In this document: positions 2,065 through 17,735 of the stretch, piece after piece
Layout: each line of letters opens with the position of its first letter
How positions within the stretch are numbered: position 1 is the stretch's first letter
Assembly: GCA_965221155.1 (NCBI GenBank)
Contig: OZ244869.1
Span: 2,584,772 to 2,648,771 of the forward strand
Length of the DNA stretch: 64,000 nt
DNA from: an uncultured Candidatus Binatia bacterium
GTDB taxonomy: Bacteria; Desulfobacterota; Binatia; UBA9968; JAJDTQ01
Direction of reading: 5' to 3'
Program-made: the position numbers and the translations under genes
The notes under the pieces: generated by a model
The model's database searches: none
What the model saw: the letters and a program-made list of their open reading frames with translations, nothing else
What the model was told of the DNA's origin: nothing

Positions 2065-3333
2065 CTAATTGCGACGCTTGCCGGCGGCGGGCGCGTCGGA
2101 GCGCAGGAGCTCGAGGATCTCCTTCCGTGGAAACCCGTCCACGCGACGCTGCTTATTATTCTGATAGTCTCGTATGGCGGCGCGGGTCTTGGGGCCGATG
2201 ATCCCGTCTATCTCGCCGATGTCATACCCGCGCGCCGCCAGAAGGCGCTGCAGCTCCTTGCGCTCCGGCTCGGTGATGGGGTCGATGCCGCCGGGCCAGG
2301 CGAGGGCTTGTTCCTCTCCCCGCAACCGGTCCGAAAGGTGTCCCACGGCAAGAGCGTACTTGTGGGCCGGGTTGTAGCGCAGGATCGAGCGGAAGTTCCG
2401 GCGCAGCAGGAAGGCCGGCCCGTCGGCGCCCGCCGGCAGGTCGAGGTAGGCGCGATCACCCGCGTGCGGGAAGGTCTCGCCGTCCGTGCGCCGCAGGCCC
2501 AGCCGCTGCCATTCACGGATGGCCCTCTCGTGCTTGCGGCCCGCCAGCCCCGCGTCGAAGCGTTCCGGGAGAAGGACCTGATGGCCCCACGGCCGGCCCG
2601 ATATCCACTTGTTCCCGCGCAGATAGTTGGCGGCGGACGCCAACGCATCCTGCGGCGTGTCCCAGATGTCGCGGCGGCCGTCGCCGGTGTAGTCCACCGC
2701 ATAGGCGGCGTAGCTGGTGGGGATGAACTGGGTGTGCCCCATGGCCCCCGCCCACGAGCCGGTCATACGGTCGAGGGTGATGTCGCCCGCCTTCAGGATG
2801 TCGAGGGCCGCCAGCAGTTGGGAGCGTCCGAATTCGGCCCGGCGTCCCTTGTAGGCGAGGGTGGAGAGCGAGCGAATCACTTTGCGCTTGCCGCGCAGCT
2901 TTCCATACAGCGTTTCCATGCCCCAGATGGCCGCCAGCACGTGACGGTCCACGCCGTACCGCCGCTCGATGCCCTCCAGGTCCGCCGCAAACTCGGACAG
3001 CTTGCGGCGCCCTTCCTTCACCCGCGTATCGGTGATCACCAAGGCCAGATAATGGGATGCCGGCAGCACGAACTCGGGCTGGCGGTTGTTTCTCTCGATG
3101 ACTTCGGGGTCGGGGGTGAGGCCGTGGAACGCCCGGTCGTAGAGGGCCACCGGAATGCCGCGCCGGCGCGCCACCGTACGGAACTCCTCGACGAACTTCC
3201 GATAGGCCGCCTGATCGGACGTCAGCGGTTGCGCCGCGGAAGCGCTCGCCACCTCACCGGCGATCACGCCGGCCAGGAAGAAGGCCGCCGCCAAACCCGT
3301 GCCGATCTTCATTCCCCTGCCCATGGCGGACAC
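2065..3333 (-). CDS. lytic murein transglycosylase (MltB family) with C-terminal peptidoglycan-binding domain
   Basis: N-terminal signal peptide MKIGTGLAAAFFLAGVIAGEVASASA. MltB-like core. C-terminal PG_binding_1-like repeat 'LLAARGYDIGEIDGIIGPKTRAAIRDYQ'. Confidence 0.8.
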   Translation of the reverse strand: MSAMGRGMKIGTGLAAAFFLAGVIAGEVASASAAQPLTSDQAAYRKFVEEFRTVARRRGIPVALYDRAFHGLTPDPEVIERNNRQPEFVLPASHYLALVITDTRVKEGRRKLSEFAADLEGIERRYGVDRHVLAAIWGMETLYGKLRGKRKVIRSLSTLAYKGRRAEFGRSQLLAALDILKAGDITLDRMTGSWAGAMGHTQFIPTSYAAYAVDYTGDGRRDIWDTPQDALASAANYLRGNKWISGRPWGHQVLLPERFDAGLAGRKHERAIREWQRLGLRRTDGETFPHAGDRAYLDLPAGADGPAFLLRRNFRSILRYNPAHKYALAVGHLSDRLRGEEQALAWPGGIDPITEPERKELQRLLAARGYDIGEIDGIIGPKTRAAIRDYQNNKQRRVDGFPRKEILELLRSDAPAAGKRRN

Positions 3334-3345
3334 CGTATTTCCGGA

Positions 3346-3516
3346 CTAGGTGAACAGCTTGACGATGATGGCGATCAGGCCCCCCAGAATGGTAAGAGCG
3401 CCCCACGCCATCTTGCTTTCCAGCTTGGATATGTCAGCCTTGGTCGCGAGATGCGGCAGAGTCGTTTCAAAGGCCGTCTCCAACCGGGTCATGCGTTCCT
3501 CCACGCCGTTTGCCAT
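3346..3516 (-). CDS. small membrane protein, XhlA-like (N-terminal coiled coil + C-terminal TM helix); hypothetical
   Basis: 56-aa product from internal ATG: 'MANGVEERMTRLETAFETTLPHLATKADISKLESKMAWGALTILGGLIAIIVKLFT'. Sits immediately upstream of and co-directional with the transglycosylase. The longer 90-aa ORF start is unlikely. Confidence 0.3.
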   Translation of the reverse strand: MANGVEERMTRLETAFETTLPHLATKADISKLESKMAWGALTILGGLIAIIVKLFT

Positions 3517-3711
3517 GCCGTGTCTCCTGGCGGTCACTTTGACCGCTGTTGCCGTGAAAATCAACAGAACCTCGTGACATCGTGCCCGTCGCCACCTGTT
3601 TGCCCAACGAAACCGCACTGGCTATATTTGGGGCTGCGTTACCTTCCGCCGGCTCAGCGCCTTAACTCAGTGCCATAGACTTCGCCACAACATACGAGAG
3701 GAGAATTCACC

Positions 3712-4572
3712 ATGCCCAGACCGCGCCCCATCCAGTGGCCGGACAACGCCAAGATATGCGTCACTTTCATCATTCCGTGGGAGGTGTGGCCGGACAACTA
3801 CGCCACCCGGGGCTCGCTGCAACGGGTCAGCCATCCGCTGCCGCCGGACAACGCCGTCTTCAAGCAGAACATGGCCGCCGTCACCGAGCGCGAGTACGGT
3901 GACCGGGTGGGCATCTGGCGCATCATGGACATGTTCGAGCGCCACAACCTCAAGGTTACCTTCCTGATGAACGGCAAGAAGGTGGAGCAGTTCCCGGACG
4001 AGGTGAAAGAGTTCCAGGCCCAGGGGCACGAGTTTTCCTCGGAGTGCTACGAGCACGAATACGCGTTCATGTACACCCGAGAGGAAGAGCGGAAGTCGAT
4101 TCAGGACACGGTTGCCGCCTTCAAAAACGTGCTCGGGGCGCCTCCGACGGGCTATCTGTCACCCGGTCACGCCTCCACCAACAACACCCTGGATCTGGTG
4201 GCGGAAGCGGGTTTCGTGTGGTGGGCCGACCCACTCAACTCGGACGTTCCCTATACGGTCGAGGCCGGAGGCCGGAAGGTCGCCGTGGTGCCCTACAACG
4301 TGCCGGGGTGCAACGACTACTCCACCTACGGCGGCGGACGTACGCCCAGAGACCTGCTTCAGATCATGAAAGACCAGTTCGACTACCTCTACTGGGAGGG
4401 CGAGCAGGGGTCGCCGAAGTTTTTCGCGTTCAACCTCCATCCGTTCGTTTCCGGCGTGCCGTACCGGACCAGGATCGTGGACGAGTTCATCAAGTACGCC
4501 AAGGGCTTTTCCGACGTCTGGTTCGCCAGGAGGATCGAGATCGCCAACTGGATCCTGGAGCAGGGCTACTGA
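3712..4572 (+). CDS. polysaccharide deacetylase family protein (PuuE/chitooligosaccharide deacetylase-like)
   Basis: 286-aa product with NodB-like region 'KVTFLMNGKKVEQFPDEVKEFQAQGHEF'. RBS-like GAGAGGAG upstream of ATG at 3712. Confidence 0.7.
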   Translation: MPRPRPIQWPDNAKICVTFIIPWEVWPDNYATRGSLQRVSHPLPPDNAVFKQNMAAVTEREYGDRVGIWRIMDMFERHNLKVTFLMNGKKVEQFPDEVKEFQAQGHEFSSECYEHEYAFMYTREEERKSIQDTVAAFKNVLGAPPTGYLSPGHASTNNTLDLVAEAGFVWWADPLNSDVPYTVEAGGRKVAVVPYNVPGCNDYSTYGGGRTPRDLLQIMKDQFDYLYWEGEQGSPKFFAFNLHPFVSGVPYRTRIVDEFIKYAKGFSDVWFARRIEIANWILEQGY

Positions 4573-12395: not shown

Positions 12396-13700
12396 TCAAC
12401 CGAAAATGTCCTTGGAAAAGCCCGCGTACCAGCCGAGCGATTCCTTGTAGGTCGCCTTGCGCAACTCTGCGCTCTCTCCGGTCTTCGATATGAAGCCGTC
12501 CGTCTTGGCGATCTTCTCGTCGGTGGCCTTGTAGGAGGCGCCGACCTTGACCCCGTCATCGGTTTCGATAAGCGACCAGCAGGTGTTCGAGAAGCGCGCC
12601 GGAAACACCTTCGAGCCGGTCAGCGCCCCTCGCACCGCCATGGCGCACACCTTGGCCTGGCTGTTGGCGGAAAACCCGGACTTGGGCATGTCGCCCTGCT
12701 GGGAGGCATCGCCGAGGACGTGGATGTTGTCATCCGCCCGGCTTTGCATGGTATGCGGCACCACCGGGACCCAGCCGGCCTTGTTCGTGAGCCCGGCAAC
12801 CGCGGCGATGCGCCCCGCCTGTTGCGCCGGAATCACGTTGCAGACGTCCACCTTGGTCACCTCGCCGTCGATCACCACCTCCATGGACCCCGGGCGCACT
12901 TCGACCTTGTCGCCGCCGAAGTCCGGGCCGACCCGCTCGATCATGCTGGGATAGTGGCGCTGCCAGCCGTCCTCGAAGAGCCCTTGCTTGGAGAACTTCG
13001 CCTTCGGGTCGACGATCAGGATCTTCGCCGTGGGATTGGTCTGTTTCAGCGCGTGGGCGACCATCGAGATCCGTTCGTAGGGTCCCGGCGGGCAGCGGAA
13101 CGGGTTGGGCGGCGCCACCATGCAATAGACCCCGCCCTTCCGCATGGCCGCTACCTGCGCCTTGAGGAGCTGCGTTTGCGAGCCCGCCTTGTAGGCGTGC
13201 GGCATCCGGTTCTGCTGCGACAGGTCCCAGCCGCGAACCGAGCCGGGGCGGAAGTCGATGCCCGGCGACAGGACGAGCCGGTCGAAGGGGAGGCTGCCGC
13301 CGCCCGCGAGCCCTACCGTCCGGCGGTCGTGGTCGATGGAGACGGCCCAGTCGTGAACCACATTGATGCCGTAGGTCGCCGCAAGGGTCCCGTAGCTGTG
13401 CCCGAGGGACGCGAACTCACGGAAACCGCCAAGGTAGAGGTTCGAGAAGAAGCACGAGTAATAGTGCCGGGTGGGTTCCACCAGGGTCACATCGATGGCG
13501 CCTTTCGAATCCTTCGCGATGTAGCGCGCGGCGGTCGCGCCGCCGGCGCCGCCGCCGATCACCACCACCCGCGGGCGGCTCTGCCCGAGCACGGGACCCG
13601 CCCACAGCGCGGTGGAAACCCCGATGGTTGACGCAAGGAAACGCCGCCGGGTCATGCCTGTTTTTTTGTTCTGCTCTTTCACGATGCCCCTCCTTCTCAT
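12396..13700 (-). CDS. fccB: flavocytochrome c sulfide dehydrogenase, flavoprotein subunit (FccB/SoxF-like)
   Basis: Tat motif TRRRFLAST. N-terminal FAD fold 'VVVIGGGAGGATAARYIAK'. Overall FCSD architecture (434 aa). ATGA start/stop overlap with upstream cytochrome gene. Confidence 0.85.
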   Translation of the reverse strand: MRRRGIVKEQNKKTGMTRRRFLASTIGVSTALWAGPVLGQSRPRVVVIGGGAGGATAARYIAKDSKGAIDVTLVEPTRHYYSCFFSNLYLGGFREFASLGHSYGTLAATYGINVVHDWAVSIDHDRRTVGLAGGGSLPFDRLVLSPGIDFRPGSVRGWDLSQQNRMPHAYKAGSQTQLLKAQVAAMRKGGVYCMVAPPNPFRCPPGPYERISMVAHALKQTNPTAKILIVDPKAKFSKQGLFEDGWQRHYPSMIERVGPDFGGDKVEVRPGSMEVVIDGEVTKVDVCNVIPAQQAGRIAAVAGLTNKAGWVPVVPHTMQSRADDNIHVLGDASQQGDMPKSGFSANSQAKVCAMAVRGALTGSKVFPARFSNTCWSLIETDDGVKVGASYKATDEKIAKTDGFISKTGESAELRKATYKESLGWYAGFSKDIFG

Positions 13701-14419
13701 GGAACGCCGAGCGATCGGCCAAAATACGTCGCGAGCGCGGCGATCTCCTCGTCTGACAAACGCCTGGCGATGGTCTGCATCGCCGCGTGCCGCCGGTTGC
13801 CGTGTTTGTACGCCTGTAGCGTTATCACGAAGTCATCGACCGGCCAACCCGTTATGGAGGGAATGCCTTCGTCGACGCCGTCCGCCCGGTGACAAGTGGT
13901 GCACTCGCTCGCGAGATAGGCGCCGTATTCGGGGTCTCCCCGGATCGCGAGGAGTTGCGGGTCGAGTTCGTATTCGGCCGCGGTCATGGTCGGTTCCGCC
14001 GCCGGAAGCCCGGGCCGGGCGCCGGAAAGGGTACGCAGCCACGCCACCAGATCCGCCCTGTCGCCGGGCGCGGCCATGCCGTCATAGCTCATGCGCGACC
14101 GTGGCACCATCTTCCGCGGGTTCGCCAAAAAGGGGTCCAGCGTCTTCTCGGTCCAGACCAGCCCGCCGGCGCCGGCCTTCCTCATCGCCGGAGAGTAGCG
14201 GAAGTCCCGGAGCGAACCGGCCCGGCGGCCGAATACGTCGTTCAGGTGCGGACCGATCCGGTGCTGCGCGCCTTGGCCCGCCTGATGGCAGCGCTTGCAT
14301 TGCTGGTAGAGCGCGTTGCCGCGCCGCGGGTCCGCGCCTGGGGCTCCGGTGGCGACGAGAACCGCGAGAAGAGCCGAGGCAAGCATCGCGAAACCCGCGG
14401 GTTTCGTGATGCGCCTCAT
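13697..14419 (-). CDS. fccA: diheme cytochrome c (flavocytochrome c cytochrome subunit FccA-like)
   Basis: Start reassigned to ATG 14419 (MRRITKPAGFAMLASALLAVLVATGAP signal peptide). Two CxxCH motifs (CKRCHQ, CTTCHR). Confidence 0.75.
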   Translation of the reverse strand: MRRITKPAGFAMLASALLAVLVATGAPGADPRRGNALYQQCKRCHQAGQGAQHRIGPHLNDVFGRRAGSLRDFRYSPAMRKAGAGGLVWTEKTLDPFLANPRKMVPRSRMSYDGMAAPGDRADLVAWLRTLSGARPGLPAAEPTMTAAEYELDPQLLAIRGDPEYGAYLASECTTCHRADGVDEGIPSITGWPVDDFVITLQAYKHGNRRHAAMQTIARRLSDEEIAALATYFGRSLGVP

Positions 14420-14441
14420 TCGGCCTCGGGATTCGGGAACG

Positions 14442-14780
14442 TCAGGATCTGACCTCGACCCGCCTGCTGAGACGGTATACGGAGCCATCGTCATCCACCC
14501 ATTCGAATTCCATCTCGCCCGACTCCTGGACGGCCATCTCGAAACTGAAGTACGGGTCGGCGGACACCGCCCGCTCGAGATCCACGGATATCGTCTCCTC
14601 CCCATTGTAGCGGGCCACGAACCGGTTGATGATCCGGCGAGGAATTCGTTTCCCCTCACGGTCGAGGCGGAGCCCGGTATGCATGGGATGGGTGATCCGG
14701 GTCCTGACCGTGAAGGGAACGCCCACGGACACCGACTTCGGCAGTTTCACGCGCGGCCTGGGTTTCGCCATTCCATTCAC
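14442..14780 (-). CDS. soxZ: thiosulfate-oxidation carrier complex protein SoxZ
   Basis: 112 aa. Blocks 'ITHPMHTGLRLDREGKRIPRRIINRF...NG...AVSADPYFSFE...ESGEMEFEWVDDDGSVY' match SoxZ consensus (ISHPMESG..DGK.IPR.IINRF...NPYF.F...SG...F.W.DDDGSVY). Confidence 0.8.
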   Translation of the reverse strand: MNGMAKPRPRVKLPKSVSVGVPFTVRTRITHPMHTGLRLDREGKRIPRRIINRFVARYNGEETISVDLERAVSADPYFSFEMAVQESGEMEFEWVDDDGSVYRLSRRVEVRS

Positions 14781-15206
14781 CTAGCAACCGCCCGCCGTCA
14801 CCTTGATCGAGCGGGAGGTCACCCGAAACGTGCCGTCGGCCATTTCCGCAACGGCGATCAGCCTCTGGCTCCGGGCCAGCCGGATACGGGTCGACGCCGC
14901 GGGCGTGATCCACTTTCCAAAGGTAAAGACGGCGACGCCGGGACTCGGATTGCTGTCCGCGAAAACGGCGATGCGCCGGGCGCCTTCGGCGGAGACCCGG
15001 ACCGGCACGGCGCCGCCGTTGTCGGCGATCTCCGGGGCTTCGATGCGGACACCGCCCTCGACCGGCACCGCTCCCTTGGTGAACGCCGCGATGGCCCGCG
15101 AGGTGTCGGTGGATGCCCGGACGAGGCGGACGGGAAGGAACGCGGCTGCGGACGCCGCAAGCGTCGCGCCGGCGAAAGCAAGTATGTCCCTGCGGGTAAG
15201 GTCCAT
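14781..15206 (-). CDS. soxY: thiosulfate-oxidation carrier protein SoxY
   Basis: Tat signal MDLTRRDILAFAGATLAASAAAF. C-terminal carrier-cysteine motif ...VTAGGC-COOH. 1-nt gap to soxZ. Confidence 0.8.
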   Translation of the reverse strand: MDLTRRDILAFAGATLAASAAAFLPVRLVRASTDTSRAIAAFTKGAVPVEGGVRIEAPEIADNGGAVPVRVSAEGARRIAVFADSNPSPGVAVFTFGKWITPAASTRIRLARSQRLIAVAEMADGTFRVTSRSIKVTAGGC

Positions 15207-15296
15207 GTTCGTCACCAAAAAAAACTACCATGAGGCACGGAAGGGGTCCATCGGCCGGAGCCCCTCCCTGCTTGCCGCGCGCCCCGATCCCTTCTA

Positions 15297-15336: not shown

Positions 15337-16329
15337 GTGAAATTCGGCCTGTTCATCATCGGAGACAGCGACCCGGAGCTCGGGCACGACCTCAAGGGCT
15401 ACTACGAGCGGATGCTCGAGCAGGTCCGCTGGGGAGAGTCCCTGGGCTACGAGTGCTTCTGGTTCGGCGAGCACCACTTCGACTTCCACGGCATCATTCC
15501 GTCGCCCACGGTGCTCATGTCTGCCGCGGCCGCGTGCACCGACTCCATCCGACTGGGCGTGGCCGTGGCGCTGCTACCCTACCGGGACCCCGTGCTCACG
15601 GCCGAGGAGTACGCCATGGTCGACGTGCTGAGCGGCGGCCGGCTCGACTTCGGAGTCGGGCGGGGCACCCCACCGGAACTGGTCGGCTTCGGCGTCAAGG
15701 AGGACAACCGGGACCGGCTTGTGGAGAGCCTCGAAGTCGTCGAGATGGCCTGGCGGGAAGGGCGAGTGTCCTATCAGGGACAGTTCCACCACATCGACGA
15801 CGTGTCCCTGAACGTGCTCCCGGTCCAGCGGCCCTTGCCGCCGGTGTACTTCGCCGCCCTGAGCCAGGGCTCCTACCAGGTGGCGGGGGAGAAGGGCTAT
15901 CCCATCATGGGCATCCCTTTCGCGAGCTGCAAGGACATGGCCGAGGTCAAGCGCAAGGTGGCCTTCTACAAGGAAACGCTGAGCCGATCCGGCCACGCCC
16001 CCGACGCGCTGGACGTGGCCCAGTGCATCCACACCCATGTGGCCGAGTCCGACGAGGCCGCCCGCCGCCGCGCCCGCCCCGCCATGAGCCGCTACTACGA
16101 AATGCGCAAGAGCGTACGGCCCCGGAGCTACGACGAACTCGACCGGGCACGCATGCTGATGGTCGGCGGCCCCGCGCGCTGCTTGGAACAGATCGAGGAA
16201 ATCGCCGACACCGGCACCAACTACATCATCTTCTCCATGAACTTCGCCGGCCTGGAACAGAAGAGCATTCTGGAGTCCATGGCGATGATGGCGGAGGAGG
16301 TGCTGCCGAAGGTTGCCGCGCGGAAGTAG
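15337..16329 (+). CDS. LLM-class flavin-dependent oxidoreductase (luciferase-like monooxygenase)
   Basis: GTG start after GAGGGG RBS. 'MKFGLFIIGDS...GYECFWFGEHHF' N-terminus typical of the LLM TIM-barrel family. 330 aa. Confidence 0.85.
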   Translation: MKFGLFIIGDSDPELGHDLKGYYERMLEQVRWGESLGYECFWFGEHHFDFHGIIPSPTVLMSAAAACTDSIRLGVAVALLPYRDPVLTAEEYAMVDVLSGGRLDFGVGRGTPPELVGFGVKEDNRDRLVESLEVVEMAWREGRVSYQGQFHHIDDVSLNVLPVQRPLPPVYFAALSQGSYQVAGEKGYPIMGIPFASCKDMAEVKRKVAFYKETLSRSGHAPDALDVAQCIHTHVAESDEAARRRARPAMSRYYEMRKSVRPRSYDELDRARMLMVGGPARCLEQIEEIADTGTNYIIFSMNFAGLEQKSILESMAMMAEEVLPKVAARK

Positions 16330-16376
16330 GACACGCCCAACACGCTCTTGGCGGTGGCTCCCTTGACGTGGGCGAC

Positions 16377-16820
16377 TTAGGAATCTTGGGACTTTGGGGC
16401 ACTACGAGGCAGAACCCGATAAACAGGTATTGTCAGAACCGGCATAGACATCCGGGCCATCGACGCCTGGACATATTCGCGCCAATAGGGCCAGGCGTTG
16501 AATACGGCGTTTACTTGGCCAAACTCTTCCAACTCCTCAGTCGAGAAACTCTCGTCGCTCGGAAGTTGATATGACAATTCAAAGGCTCCGCGAATTTCTA
16601 CCAGCGTTTTCTCTTCGTCGGTTTCGTTGTGTCCGCTGAGTTTGAAGTCCGCCTTGACCAACAGTAAGTTGTCCTGTTGTGTGACGGCCGTGGTATACGA
16701 GGTCTTCACTTTGACGTTTTCTTCGGATTCGGATGGTCGCACGAAGGAGCGAAAACTCCCTTCGCAGAGCCTCACGTCGTCGATCTCTACGACCGAAACC
16801 AACCTTGACAGATTAGCCAT
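16377..16820 (-). CDS. SecB-like chaperone of a toxin-antitoxin-chaperone (TAC) system
   Basis: 147 aa. Block pattern parallels E. coli SecB (e.g. 'NAVFNAWPYWREYVQASMARMSMPVLTIPV' vs SecB '[29 protein letters not shown]'). Lies in the low-GC island, 7 nt after the antitoxin gene. Confidence 0.6.
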   Translation of the reverse strand: MANLSRLVSVVEIDDVRLCEGSFRSFVRPSESEENVKVKTSYTTAVTQQDNLLLVKADFKLSGHNETDEEKTLVEIRGAFELSYQLPSDESFSTEELEEFGQVNAVFNAWPYWREYVQASMARMSMPVLTIPVYRVLPRSAPKSQDS

Positions 16821-16827
16821 TCAGGAT

Positions 16828-17202
16828 TCACGCCGCCAAGGCTTGTTCTTGGTCTAAGGCACTGTCCCCGAAGTCTTGGGTCAGCATGACGGTGGACCGG
16901 GGACGAGTTCCGGGCGTCCACAAAAATTCCGACTCAAGCCGATTTTCGGGTGTCAACCAGAAAACAGGACGCATCGACAATGCGGTAGCGACATCCGCAA
17001 CCGTCCTGAGGGTCAGGTTCCGGCCGCCCCCAAGTATCTGGGACACGTAGCCCGGTGTACGACCCAGACGCCGGGCCAATTCCGCTCGAGTCACCCCAGC
17101 ATCATCAAGGACCCGTGTGAGTGTCTCGGTCACATCCAAGATCAGTTCTTCCTGCCGAACTAGACGGTCAAAGTCTTCATTGTCGTTTGCGTATATGGCC
17201 AT
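16828..17202 (-). CDS. HigA-like HTH (XRE) antitoxin with C-terminal chaperone-addiction-like extension
   Basis: HTH 'VTRAELARRLGRTPGYVSQILGGGRNLTLRTVADVA'. ~45-aa C-terminal tail beyond the HTH domain, as in TAC antitoxins. 5-nt gap to the toxin gene. Confidence 0.65.
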   Translation of the reverse strand: MAIYANDNEDFDRLVRQEELILDVTETLTRVLDDAGVTRAELARRLGRTPGYVSQILGGGRNLTLRTVADVATALSMRPVFWLTPENRLESEFLWTPGTRPRSTVMLTQDFGDSALDQEQALAA

Positions 17203-17207
17203 GGGTG

Positions 17208-17576
17208 CTACTCCCGGAAATGGCTATTGAGGATGTTCGCCGCGCGGTCTAGATCACGACTCTTATGTTGGTCGCGTTTCTTTTTGAGGCCGCTAGCAAC
17301 CACGAACTCTCGTGTCGGCGAAAATGCCCCGATAAACCGGATCTGAAACCTCTTGATCTCCCACAGTGCAATTCCCTGCCGCACGTCAAGCTTTTTGAAT
17401 TGCTCCTGAGACTCGATCCGGCCAAAGTCAGCCAATCGATTGAAGGTTGCTTGGACTCTGGCGCGCTCACGATTGTCCAGTTGCAAGAAGAATTCTTGGG
17501 CGGAGCTCTTTCCCGGCTTGTCGACCGCCCATAGAACTTCACCCCACGCACCTGATGCTGCAAACGGAATCTTCAC
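17208..17576 (-). CDS. HigB/Gp49-like (RelE/ParE superfamily) toxin
   Basis: 122 aa. Pattern 'W.V....GK.S.QEFF..L....RA.V...F.RL...G........ALWEIK.FQ.RF....S...FVV..G.KKKR' resembles the Gp49/HigB family (M. tuberculosis HigB1-type). First gene of a 3-gene minus-strand operon. Confidence 0.55.
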   Translation of the reverse strand: MKIPFAASGAWGEVLWAVDKPGKSSAQEFFLQLDNRERARVQATFNRLADFGRIESQEQFKKLDVRQGIALWEIKRFQIRFIGAFSPTREFVVASGLKKKRDQHKSRDLDRAANILNSHFRE

Positions 17577-17735
17577 ACCAAGGACTACATTGTTTATATA
17601 TAACTAAACTGGAGGTCAAGGACAATAGGGAGAAATAGGTTTTATCCTACAACCTGCGTGGCGACGGCTAAAACGGCAGCCTTATAAGTTACGCTTAGCG
17701 CGTCCCTCCCCTTTTTTACAACCCTGGGAGGGCCG

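Follow-up and report, generated by a model that had tools for sequence, protein, structure and literature searches.

What is encoded by a short, AT-richer block of DNA lying between two convergent genes of an uncultured bacterium, and where did it come from? The question is raised by a stretch of 64,000 nucleotides from a Candidatus Binatia genome (contig OZ244869.1, positions 2,584,772 to 2,648,771), hereafter the window, in which an islet of about 1.4 kb separates the 3′ ends of a luciferase-like monooxygenase (LLM) gene and of dctM, the gene of a TRAP-transporter subunit. A preliminary description of this DNA proposed that the islet carries a toxin-antitoxin-chaperone (TAC) module. TAC systems are an established class, studied in Mycobacterium tuberculosis since 2011, and their role in phage defence was shown in Escherichia coli in 2022–2024. 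The analysis reported here leads to the conclusion that the three islet genes very probably make up a tripartite TAC module of type II, with the composition HigB(Gp49)–HigA(XRE)–SecB-TA, and that the islet is accessory DNA acquired from a lower-GC donor.

Three co-directional open reading frames (ORFs) occupy the minus strand of the islet, for a toxin (17208–17576), an antitoxin (16828–17202) and a third protein (16377–16820), exactly at the coordinates previously given. Direct reading of the sequence likewise returns the spacers of the preliminary description, 5 nt (TAG CACCC ATG) and 7 nt (TGA ATCCTGA ATG). Six further contigs (L057–L062) have identical or 93–97% identical modules between their LLM and dctM genes, at the corresponding junction; all three genes are intact in the window, and the ORFs are intact in at least five contigs. 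Compared with the allele of contig L059 (93–97% identical), the dN/dS ratio of the toxin gene is 0.32, that of the antitoxin gene 0.25 and that of the third gene 0.29, values based on only 10–15 substitutions per gene.

The first gene starts with GTG and encodes a protein of 122 residues, assigned to the Gp49/HigB type (RelE superfamily) by Pfam and by its family profile. It matches the Pfam family Gp49 (PF05973) with 27.0 bits, the cut-off being 23.9, over profile positions 1–88 of 90. A single-sequence search of the Protein Data Bank (PDB) with the toxin returned noise only and a family profile was needed; the one built from 21 syntenic homologues matches Streptococcus pneumoniae HigB (SpHigB, 6AF3) over nearly the full length (E=5e-5). 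Using the native SpHigB numbering, which was read off the alignment as the 6AF3 chain bears a 20-residue tag, residues K75, R80, L97 and K99 of the window toxin align with R68, R73, F90 and K92. Within the family, R80 and K99 are invariant and K75 nearly so, and the core residue F60 is conserved throughout. According to Mansour et al. (PMC9098466), R68, R73 and K92 of SpHigB correspond to the catalytic residues R68, R77 and K95 in the TAC toxin of M. tuberculosis, both proteins being 'Gp49-like' toxins with a long C-terminal helix. Since basic residues are present at the three aligned catalytic positions, the window toxin looks catalytically competent. The earlier assignment as a Gp49/HigB-like toxin is therefore borne out by both the PF05973 score and the SpHigB profile match. 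The gene caller omitted this GTG-start toxin in L059–L062, where the ORF is intact (7246–7614 in L059, L060 and L062; 7135–7503 in L061) and 93% identical to the window toxin. Because gene calls omit an intact toxin in this way, TAC modules may show in annotations as antitoxin–chaperone pairs.

The second gene encodes a HigA-like protein of 124 residues with a helix-turn-helix (HTH) domain of the XRE family. Both HTH_31 (30.5 bits, cut-off 27) and HTH_3 (24.1 bits, cut-off 23) are passed, and the best solved relatives are HigA antitoxins, for instance P. vulgaris HigA (4MCX, E=1.8e-6). The NCBIfam model TIGR02607 (antidote_HigA) gives 21.9 bits, below its curated cut-off of 47.7; by sequence, the protein is an XRE-HTH antitoxin related to the HigA structures and no equivalog of TIGR02607. 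In the AlphaFold2 (AF2) model, built with 44 homologues, an N-terminal helix (residues 6–35) and the HTH (39–74) have good confidence. From residue 81 on, the predicted local distance difference test (pLDDT) averages 60, 53, 40, 42 and 43 in successive blocks of ten residues, and it is below 50 for residues 99–124. The C-terminal tail of about 45 residues is thus real, and it is predicted to be disordered because the AF2 confidence falls from residue 81 on. HTH domains and low-pLDDT tail together uphold the earlier claim of an XRE-HTH antitoxin with a C-terminal extension of that length.

This tail (residues ~80–124; 16831–16965, minus strand) is a candidate chaperone-addiction (ChAD) region on the grounds of its pLDDT and of homologue comparison, and it contains the aromatic residues W82, F93, W95 and F109. 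Across the syntenic homologues it varies more than any other part of the antitoxin, with one conserved Trp (W95 in the window). Antitoxin homologues split into short forms of 88–121 residues, which have no tail, and long forms of 122–168 residues. The window antitoxin ends in ...EQALAA, and its terminal Leu-Ala-Ala (16831–16839, minus strand) is a candidate ClpX-type degron, as suggested by counts of C-termini and by homologous degrons. Two aliphatic C-terminal residues close 31 of 41 antitoxins from the surveyed loci (AA in 21, VA in 8), 1 of 26 toxins and none of 56 chaperones. Among the 120 closest antitoxin homologues in a collection of 5.8 billion proteins, an AA or VA terminus is present in 65 of the 85 long forms (≥122 residues) versus 0 of the 35 short ones. 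Antitoxins of the MqsA and HicB types that adjoin members of the chaperone clade also end in MAA, LVA or LAA, and such ends extend to the antitoxins of the HigB-like and DUF6932 pairs upstream of this clade. The Val-Ala end of M. tuberculosis HigA1 is an experimentally established ClpX degron located inside the ChAD, the Ala-Ala end of CmdA makes CmdTA ClpXP-dependent, and E. coli HigA, which ends in Leu-Pro, is ClpXP-independent; aromatic ChAD residues serve as chaperone anchors, namely W108 and Y114 in M. tuberculosis and W128, F158, F188 and Y214 in E. coli (PMC8165232; bioRxiv 10.1101/2024.02.24.581848). The AA/VA pattern matches, as far as sequence comparison can tell, the degrons of HigA1 and CmdA, and the window tail appears to fit the published ChAD/degron description in kind.

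The third gene encodes a protein of 147 residues, which we assign to the SecB-like TA chaperones (SecB-TA; TA, toxin-antitoxin) by its profile match to Rv1957 of M. tuberculosis and by its predicted fold. A phmmer search against PDB sequences gave one match, Rv1957 (5MTW_C, 'SecB-like chaperone'; E=1.3e-3), and the profile of the 51-sequence family reaches the same chain at E=3e-9 over positions 6–135. In the AF2 model (pLDDT 85.8, predicted TM-score 0.78), a helix of 30 residues comes after four antiparallel strands. Compared with the PDB by Foldseek, the model finds the four 5MTW chains first (E=3e-9 to 2e-8; TM 0.74–0.78 normalised by query and 0.79–0.83 by target), then E. coli and Haemophilus influenzae SecB (1QYN, 1OZB and 1FX3; TM ~0.70) and nothing else that is close; the best 19 PDB matches are all 5MTW or SecB, with a query-normalised TM of 0.67–0.78. 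The protein also matches the phage protein family phrog_16879 (E=6e-16) and, weakly, the PADLOC model PD-T4-9_C, the chaperone of CmdTAC (E=3e-4). In Rv1957, the ChAD peptide is held by D27 and R29 on strand 1 and by A153 and L154-P155-P156-L157 after helix 1 (Guillet et al., PMC6377645). By alignment alone, D27, R29 and A153–L157 would correspond to D15, R17 and S125-M126-P127-V128-L129 of the window protein, whose P127 and T130 are nearly invariant in the family.

The genomic context of the family adds considerably to this picture. When one genome per species was scanned with the chaperone family, relatives of the chaperone turned up at 56 loci, mostly from Vicinamibacterales and other Acidobacteriota, Binatia, Planctomycetota, Actinomycetota and Dormiibacterota, none with a match above 61%. 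Of the 19 closest loci, 18 have homologues of the toxin and of the antitoxin immediately upstream in the same orientation, most often arranged as toxin–antitoxin–chaperone, and the same three-gene adjacency is also found in several distant loci; this synteny therefore recurs in many genomes of several phyla. Three acidobacterial loci (L007, L011 and L015; ~2900–4460 in each) have the same three families in the order antitoxin–toxin–chaperone. Where no toxin or antitoxin of the window type was detected, the upstream genes come from other TA families: an MqsA-type antitoxin with a small upstream toxin, HicB, a HigB-like PF05015 protein with an HTH antitoxin, DUF6932 with an HTH antitoxin, or a divergent Gp49/HTH pair. 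The nearest plasmid relatives of the chaperone are annotated as 'preprotein translocase subunit SecB', and one of these, on a 7.4-kb Acinetobacter plasmid, follows an MqsA-family antitoxin. An exhaustive profile search yielded 4,697 clusters at 50% identity with E≤1e-3, and 2,547 with E≤1e-10. Recurrent TA synteny, varied TA partners and these cluster numbers identify the family as a large, modular, TA-dedicated SecB-like clade. Such SecB-like TA chaperones are described in the published TAC literature (PMC3581621, PMC5105189). One relative from Vicinamibacterales (P0280, L008:4001–4876) has 291 residues, with ~140 extra residues C-terminal to the SecB-like domain, and may be a fusion or a read-through. 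The TAC architecture put forward in the preliminary description is accordingly supported by the gene layout, the Gp49 match, the HTH domain and tail of the antitoxin, the Rv1957-like chaperone and the synteny.

With regard to its origin, the composition of the islet is clearly different from that of its surroundings. Over its 1426 nt, the GC content is 0.538, against a window mean of 0.649 (standard deviation 0.027 for 1426-nt windows), which is the lowest of all (rank 1 of 1252); in 300-nt windows it ranges from 0.50 to 0.59 across the block and is ~0.65 outside. The GC content at third codon positions (GC3) is 0.61 in each islet gene versus 0.91 in the LLM gene and 0.93 in dctM. The AT-richer block noticed earlier, and the dip expected in its GC profile, are thus real and far beyond chance for the 64-kb window. 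The flanking genes, which converge on the islet, are the LLM gene (PF00296; 15337–16329, plus strand) and dctM (PF06808; 17736–19016, minus strand), the latter coordinates having been set because DctM homologues have 426 residues; the nearest named DctM homologue, 77% identical, is also from Candidatus Binatia. Alignment to related contigs places one edge of the islet at the stop codon of dctM and the other inside the final ~6 codons of the LLM gene (~16310–17735), so that the span of 16330–17715 first proposed described a genuine block but with edges drawn slightly too far inwards.

Close relatives tell a similar story at the same junction. In contigs whose LLM (89–90% identical) and DctM (93–94%) are clear orthologues, the module is missing and other DNA is present instead. 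L063 and L064 have two paralogous Cys-rich secreted proteins (L063:4082–4888) and L065 has a 148-residue membrane protein (L065:6046–6492). Within the same 90% LLM cluster, which comprises 117 sequences, L143–L145 have a 430-residue protein of unknown nature together with a nucleotidyltransferase (MNT)/HepT-type TA pair (L143:5188–7124), whose MNT protein matches PADLOC PDC-S09 (E=5e-24), and L146 has a 312-residue unknown protein (L146:4885–5823). Neither the 430-residue nor the 312-residue cargo protein has a Pfam or PADLOC match. The cargo-swapped strains share 89–95% identical LLM and DctM, and it is at the two edges given above, the stop codon of dctM and the final ~6 codons of the LLM gene, that flank homology to relatives with other cargo breaks off. 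The expectation that the island would be missing from this junction in relatives holds for L063–L065 and L143–L146, but not in the sense of an empty site: a truly empty LLM–dctM junction was sought and not found, every relative examined holding other cargo. The horizontal acquisition previously deduced from the compositional contrast is well supported, because the GC3 is foreign and different cargo is found at the same junction in close relatives. As for its age, the islet genes differ from those of L059 at 3.1% of nucleotides (37/1188; dS 0.05–0.09), whereas dctM and the LLM gene differ at 5.4% (122/2274; dS 0.16–0.17), with a chi-square on these counts of ~9 (p ~0.003). Being less diverged than the flanking genes, the islet would seem to be younger than the strain split or to have been exchanged after it.

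No agent of this mobility was recognised. No phage structural, integrase or replication genes were found at the islet; there are no tRNA genes in the window, and hence no tRNA-linked integration site; an Rfam scan of the whole 64 kb returned no RNA family; and a repeat search across the islet found no convincing flanking direct or inverted repeats, and so nothing that would mark a transposon or an integron. A segment of 95 nt (17631–17725; columns 56–150 in the alignment of relatives), lying between the stop codon of dctM and the putative TAC promoter, is missing from the otherwise collinear L059–L062 and present in the identical contig L057. It contains, just past the dctM stop, the inverted repeat CCCTCCC...GGGAGGG. 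Its interpretation as a repeated element was rejected, as neither the window nor, L057 apart, any of the retrieved loci contains a second copy.

Several other features of the neighbourhood vary between strains. In L062 (L062:8493–13943), the LLM gene is split into pieces of 81 and 156 residues, after which come genes for a nucleotidyltransferase, a GmrSD_N+HNH protein and a DEAD/ResIII/EcoEI_R_C (type I HsdR-like) protein; given these genes, a defence island abuts the TAC module in that contig. On the side of the LLM gene that faces away from the islet, the lineages differ as well (window 13697–15218 versus L059:9596–12711): a 145-residue protein with a twin-arginine signal is encoded there in the window, L057, L058 and L063–L065, the window having in addition a 112-residue protein and a cytochrome c on that side, while DUF6282 and MbnB/TglH-family genes are found there in L059–L061 and L143–L146. 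Upstream of the toxin gene, a promoter-like arrangement (17593–17619, minus strand) consists of TTGACC (17614–17619), a 15-nt spacer and TATAAA (17593–17598), the latter overlapped by the 10-bp palindrome TTATATATAA (17594–17603, minus strand). Both the promoter-like motif and TTATATATAA are kept in the close alleles of L059–L062; read from the sequence, they are only candidates, for a promoter and an operator, respectively. A terminator scan gave only weak terminator-like sites within genes.

How a module of this type would work can be drawn from its M. tuberculosis and E. coli homologues, the spacers, the residues at the catalytic positions and the tail being seen directly in the sequence. 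The three closely spaced genes would form one operon. The toxin would act as a ribosome-dependent mRNA endonuclease, with K75, R80 and K99 at the RelE/HigB catalytic positions according to the alignment. Neutralisation by the antitoxin would involve the N-terminal helix and the HTH core of that protein, which is probably a repressor of the promoter as well. Its disordered, aromatic-rich tail ending in Leu-Ala-Ala would make it a ClpXP substrate, or prone to aggregation, unless held by a tetramer of the SecB-like chaperone. If the chaperone were diverted to other unfolded clients, the antitoxin would be lost and the toxin would arrest translation. The trigger may be a phage structural protein, the client in E. 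coli HigBAC being a phage major tail protein. For the window module itself, we infer toxicity and addiction to the chaperone, as well as any role in phage defence.

It is important to note that several results weigh against the TAC reading. The toxin scores only 3 bits over its Pfam cut-off. The antitoxin tail has no W-x-R-x3-Y, the core motif of the M. tuberculosis ChAD, and E. coli HigBAC indicates that a TAC system need not use ClpXP; in addition, toxicity, neutralisation, chaperone dependence and ClpXP dependence are attributed to these particular proteins by analogy. A consensus sigma-70 scan, which needs a spacer of 16–18 nt, called no promoter, and for this reason the TTGACC–TATAAA pair is weak evidence. 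A further point concerns the chaperone, since the Pfam SecB profile (PF02556) does not match the window protein at E≤1 and no NCBIfam model matches it either. Only 3 of the 51 family members match Pfam SecB, weakly (best E=0.0026), and the alignment by hhalign of the chaperone family to an approximate sequence of E. coli SecB covered only PYxRE...P.L with a probability of 3.6% and was not used as support; the sequence similarity to canonical SecB is marginal. The profile searches recommended in the preliminary description therefore gave the Gp49 and the HTH_31 and HTH_3 matches expected but not that of SecB, and the same text had named a third gene without a match to SecB-like profiles as the finding that would speak against its proposal, which, read literally, is what Pfam returns. 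This is outweighed by the profile match to Rv1957 (E=3e-9) and by the fold shared with 5MTW and SecB, a judgement that we consider supported: on profile and predicted-structure grounds the third protein is SecB-like, as first proposed, and it lies outside Pfam SecB as that family is delimited.

Alternative explanations have to be considered in the light of the same evidence. The islet might hold an ordinary two-gene HigBA pair beside a general export chaperone, the SecB of the Sec pathway, unrelated to any TA function. The fold does match canonical SecB (TM ~0.70), the acidic cluster that binds SecA has three positions, two of which are acidic residues in the window protein by alignment (E20 and E75; PMC6377645), and published TAC chaperones can substitute for E. 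coli SecB (PMC6377645). Yet the gene is separated from the antitoxin by just 7 nt and shares the low GC3 of the other two; the family accompanies the TA pair in different phyla and is found beside four other TA families too; relatives that have no islet also have no chaperone at the locus; in both sequence and fold it is matched best by Rv1957, a TA-dedicated protein, and not by SecB; and long antitoxin tails co-occur with the degron, all of which makes an independent SecB very unlikely. Hardly more credible, and likewise very improbable, is that the module is a decaying or domesticated remnant with intact ORFs, functionless now and with an inactive toxin comparable to M. tuberculosis HigB2 and HigB3. 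Inactivity is frequent among chromosomal TA modules (PMC9098466 for HigB2 and HigB3), the Pfam score of the toxin is marginal and the selection test has few substitutions to work with, but the three ORFs are intact in at least five contigs, dN/dS is 0.25–0.32, the promoter region is conserved, and so are, family-wide, K75, R80, K99 and the core F60. Finally, the pair of Gp49-family protein and Cro/CI-like repressor might be the regulatory remnant of a prophage or plasmid, controlling lysogeny and constituting no TA module. This would accord with the Pfam name 'phage derived protein Gp49-like', with the many phage repressor families (PHROGs) that the antitoxin matches and with the phrog_16879 match of the third protein. 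An islet devoid of phage structural, integrase and replication genes, of tRNA and of flanking repeats, a toxin with no PHROG match, and an architecture and tail features that match TAC systems leave it extremely unlikely.

Beyond the TAC reading, a broader hypothesis can be formulated, which we regard as tentative and rather doubtful at present: the LLM–dctM junction could be a strain-variable defence/TA hotspot that swaps cargo with no recognisable integrase, tRNA or repeat, in which the TAC module would act as an anti-phage sensor, its chaperone being titrated by a phage structural protein and the Leu-Ala-Ala end thereby exposed to ClpXP. If this were true, the near-universal AA/VA end of the long-tailed antitoxins would mean that TAC systems of environmental phyla are by default built for ClpXP-gated triggering. 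Different accessory cargo at one junction in near-identical strains offers a natural system in which to study the swapping of small TA and defence cassettes by means other than mobility genes. From a practical point of view, a long tail with an Ala-Ala or Val-Ala terminus provides a simple sequence rule for recognising chaperone-addicted antitoxins. Large as it is (~4,700 clusters at 50% identity), the SecB-TA clade escapes both Pfam SecB and NCBIfam, and the GTG-start toxin is missed in four contigs; TAC modules are thus likely to be under-annotated in environmental genomes.

The locus adds a member, and not a principle, to a known class, and this member lies in an accessory hotspot that varies between strains, the added point being the different accessory genes at the same spot in relatives. 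Compared with the systems already described, it shares with CmdTAC/PD-T4-9 (PMC11618068) a SecB-like chaperone (the weak PADLOC match) and the Ala-Ala end of the antitoxin, ClpXP-dependent in CmdTAC, whereas the toxin there is an mRNA ADP-ribosyltransferase, not a Gp49/HigB RNase, and the antitoxin belongs to a different family; among the PD-T4-9 models, those of toxin and antitoxin are unmatched in the window and the chaperone model alone is matched (3e-4). The S. pneumoniae HigBA system (6AF3/6AF4), a two-component Gp49-type module, offers the closest solved toxin (profile E=5e-5; R68, R73, K92 and F90 aligned with K75, R80, K99 and L97), but it has neither a chaperone nor a ChAD tail. In HigBAC of E. 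coli NT1F31 (Mets et al., bioRxiv 10.1101/2024.02.24.581848), the module is again of the HigB–HigA–SecB-TA type, the aromatic residues of a disordered ChAD are the points of chaperone recognition, the genes are carried by accessory mobile DNA, as in the window, and the system offers a model for triggering through chaperone titration. Its ChAD differs in having 96 residues, four spaced aromatics and a ClpXP-independent Leu-Pro end, against ~45 residues and Leu-Ala-Ala in the window; furthermore, HigBAC is prophage-borne with proven anti-phage activity, while the window module is known from its sequence. A close counterpart is Rv1955–Rv1956–Rv1957 of M. tuberculosis (HigB1/HigA1/SecB-TA), which has the same toxin–antitoxin–chaperone order, a Gp49-type HigB with a long C-terminal helix region, an XRE-HTH antitoxin whose disordered C-terminal extension ends in an aliphatic dipeptide, and a chaperone, Rv1957, that is the best match of the window protein in sequence (E=3e-9) and in fold (TM 0.78–0.83), with D27, R29 and L-P-P-L-T as the counterparts of D15, R17 and M-P-V-L-T. 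The differences are that the window chaperone is only ~20% identical and shorter (147 versus 181 residues), that the antitoxin tail has W95 and other aromatic residues in place of the W108-x-R110-x3-Y114 core and ends in Ala-Ala instead of Val-Ala, and that the host is an uncultured, high-GC environmental bacterium.

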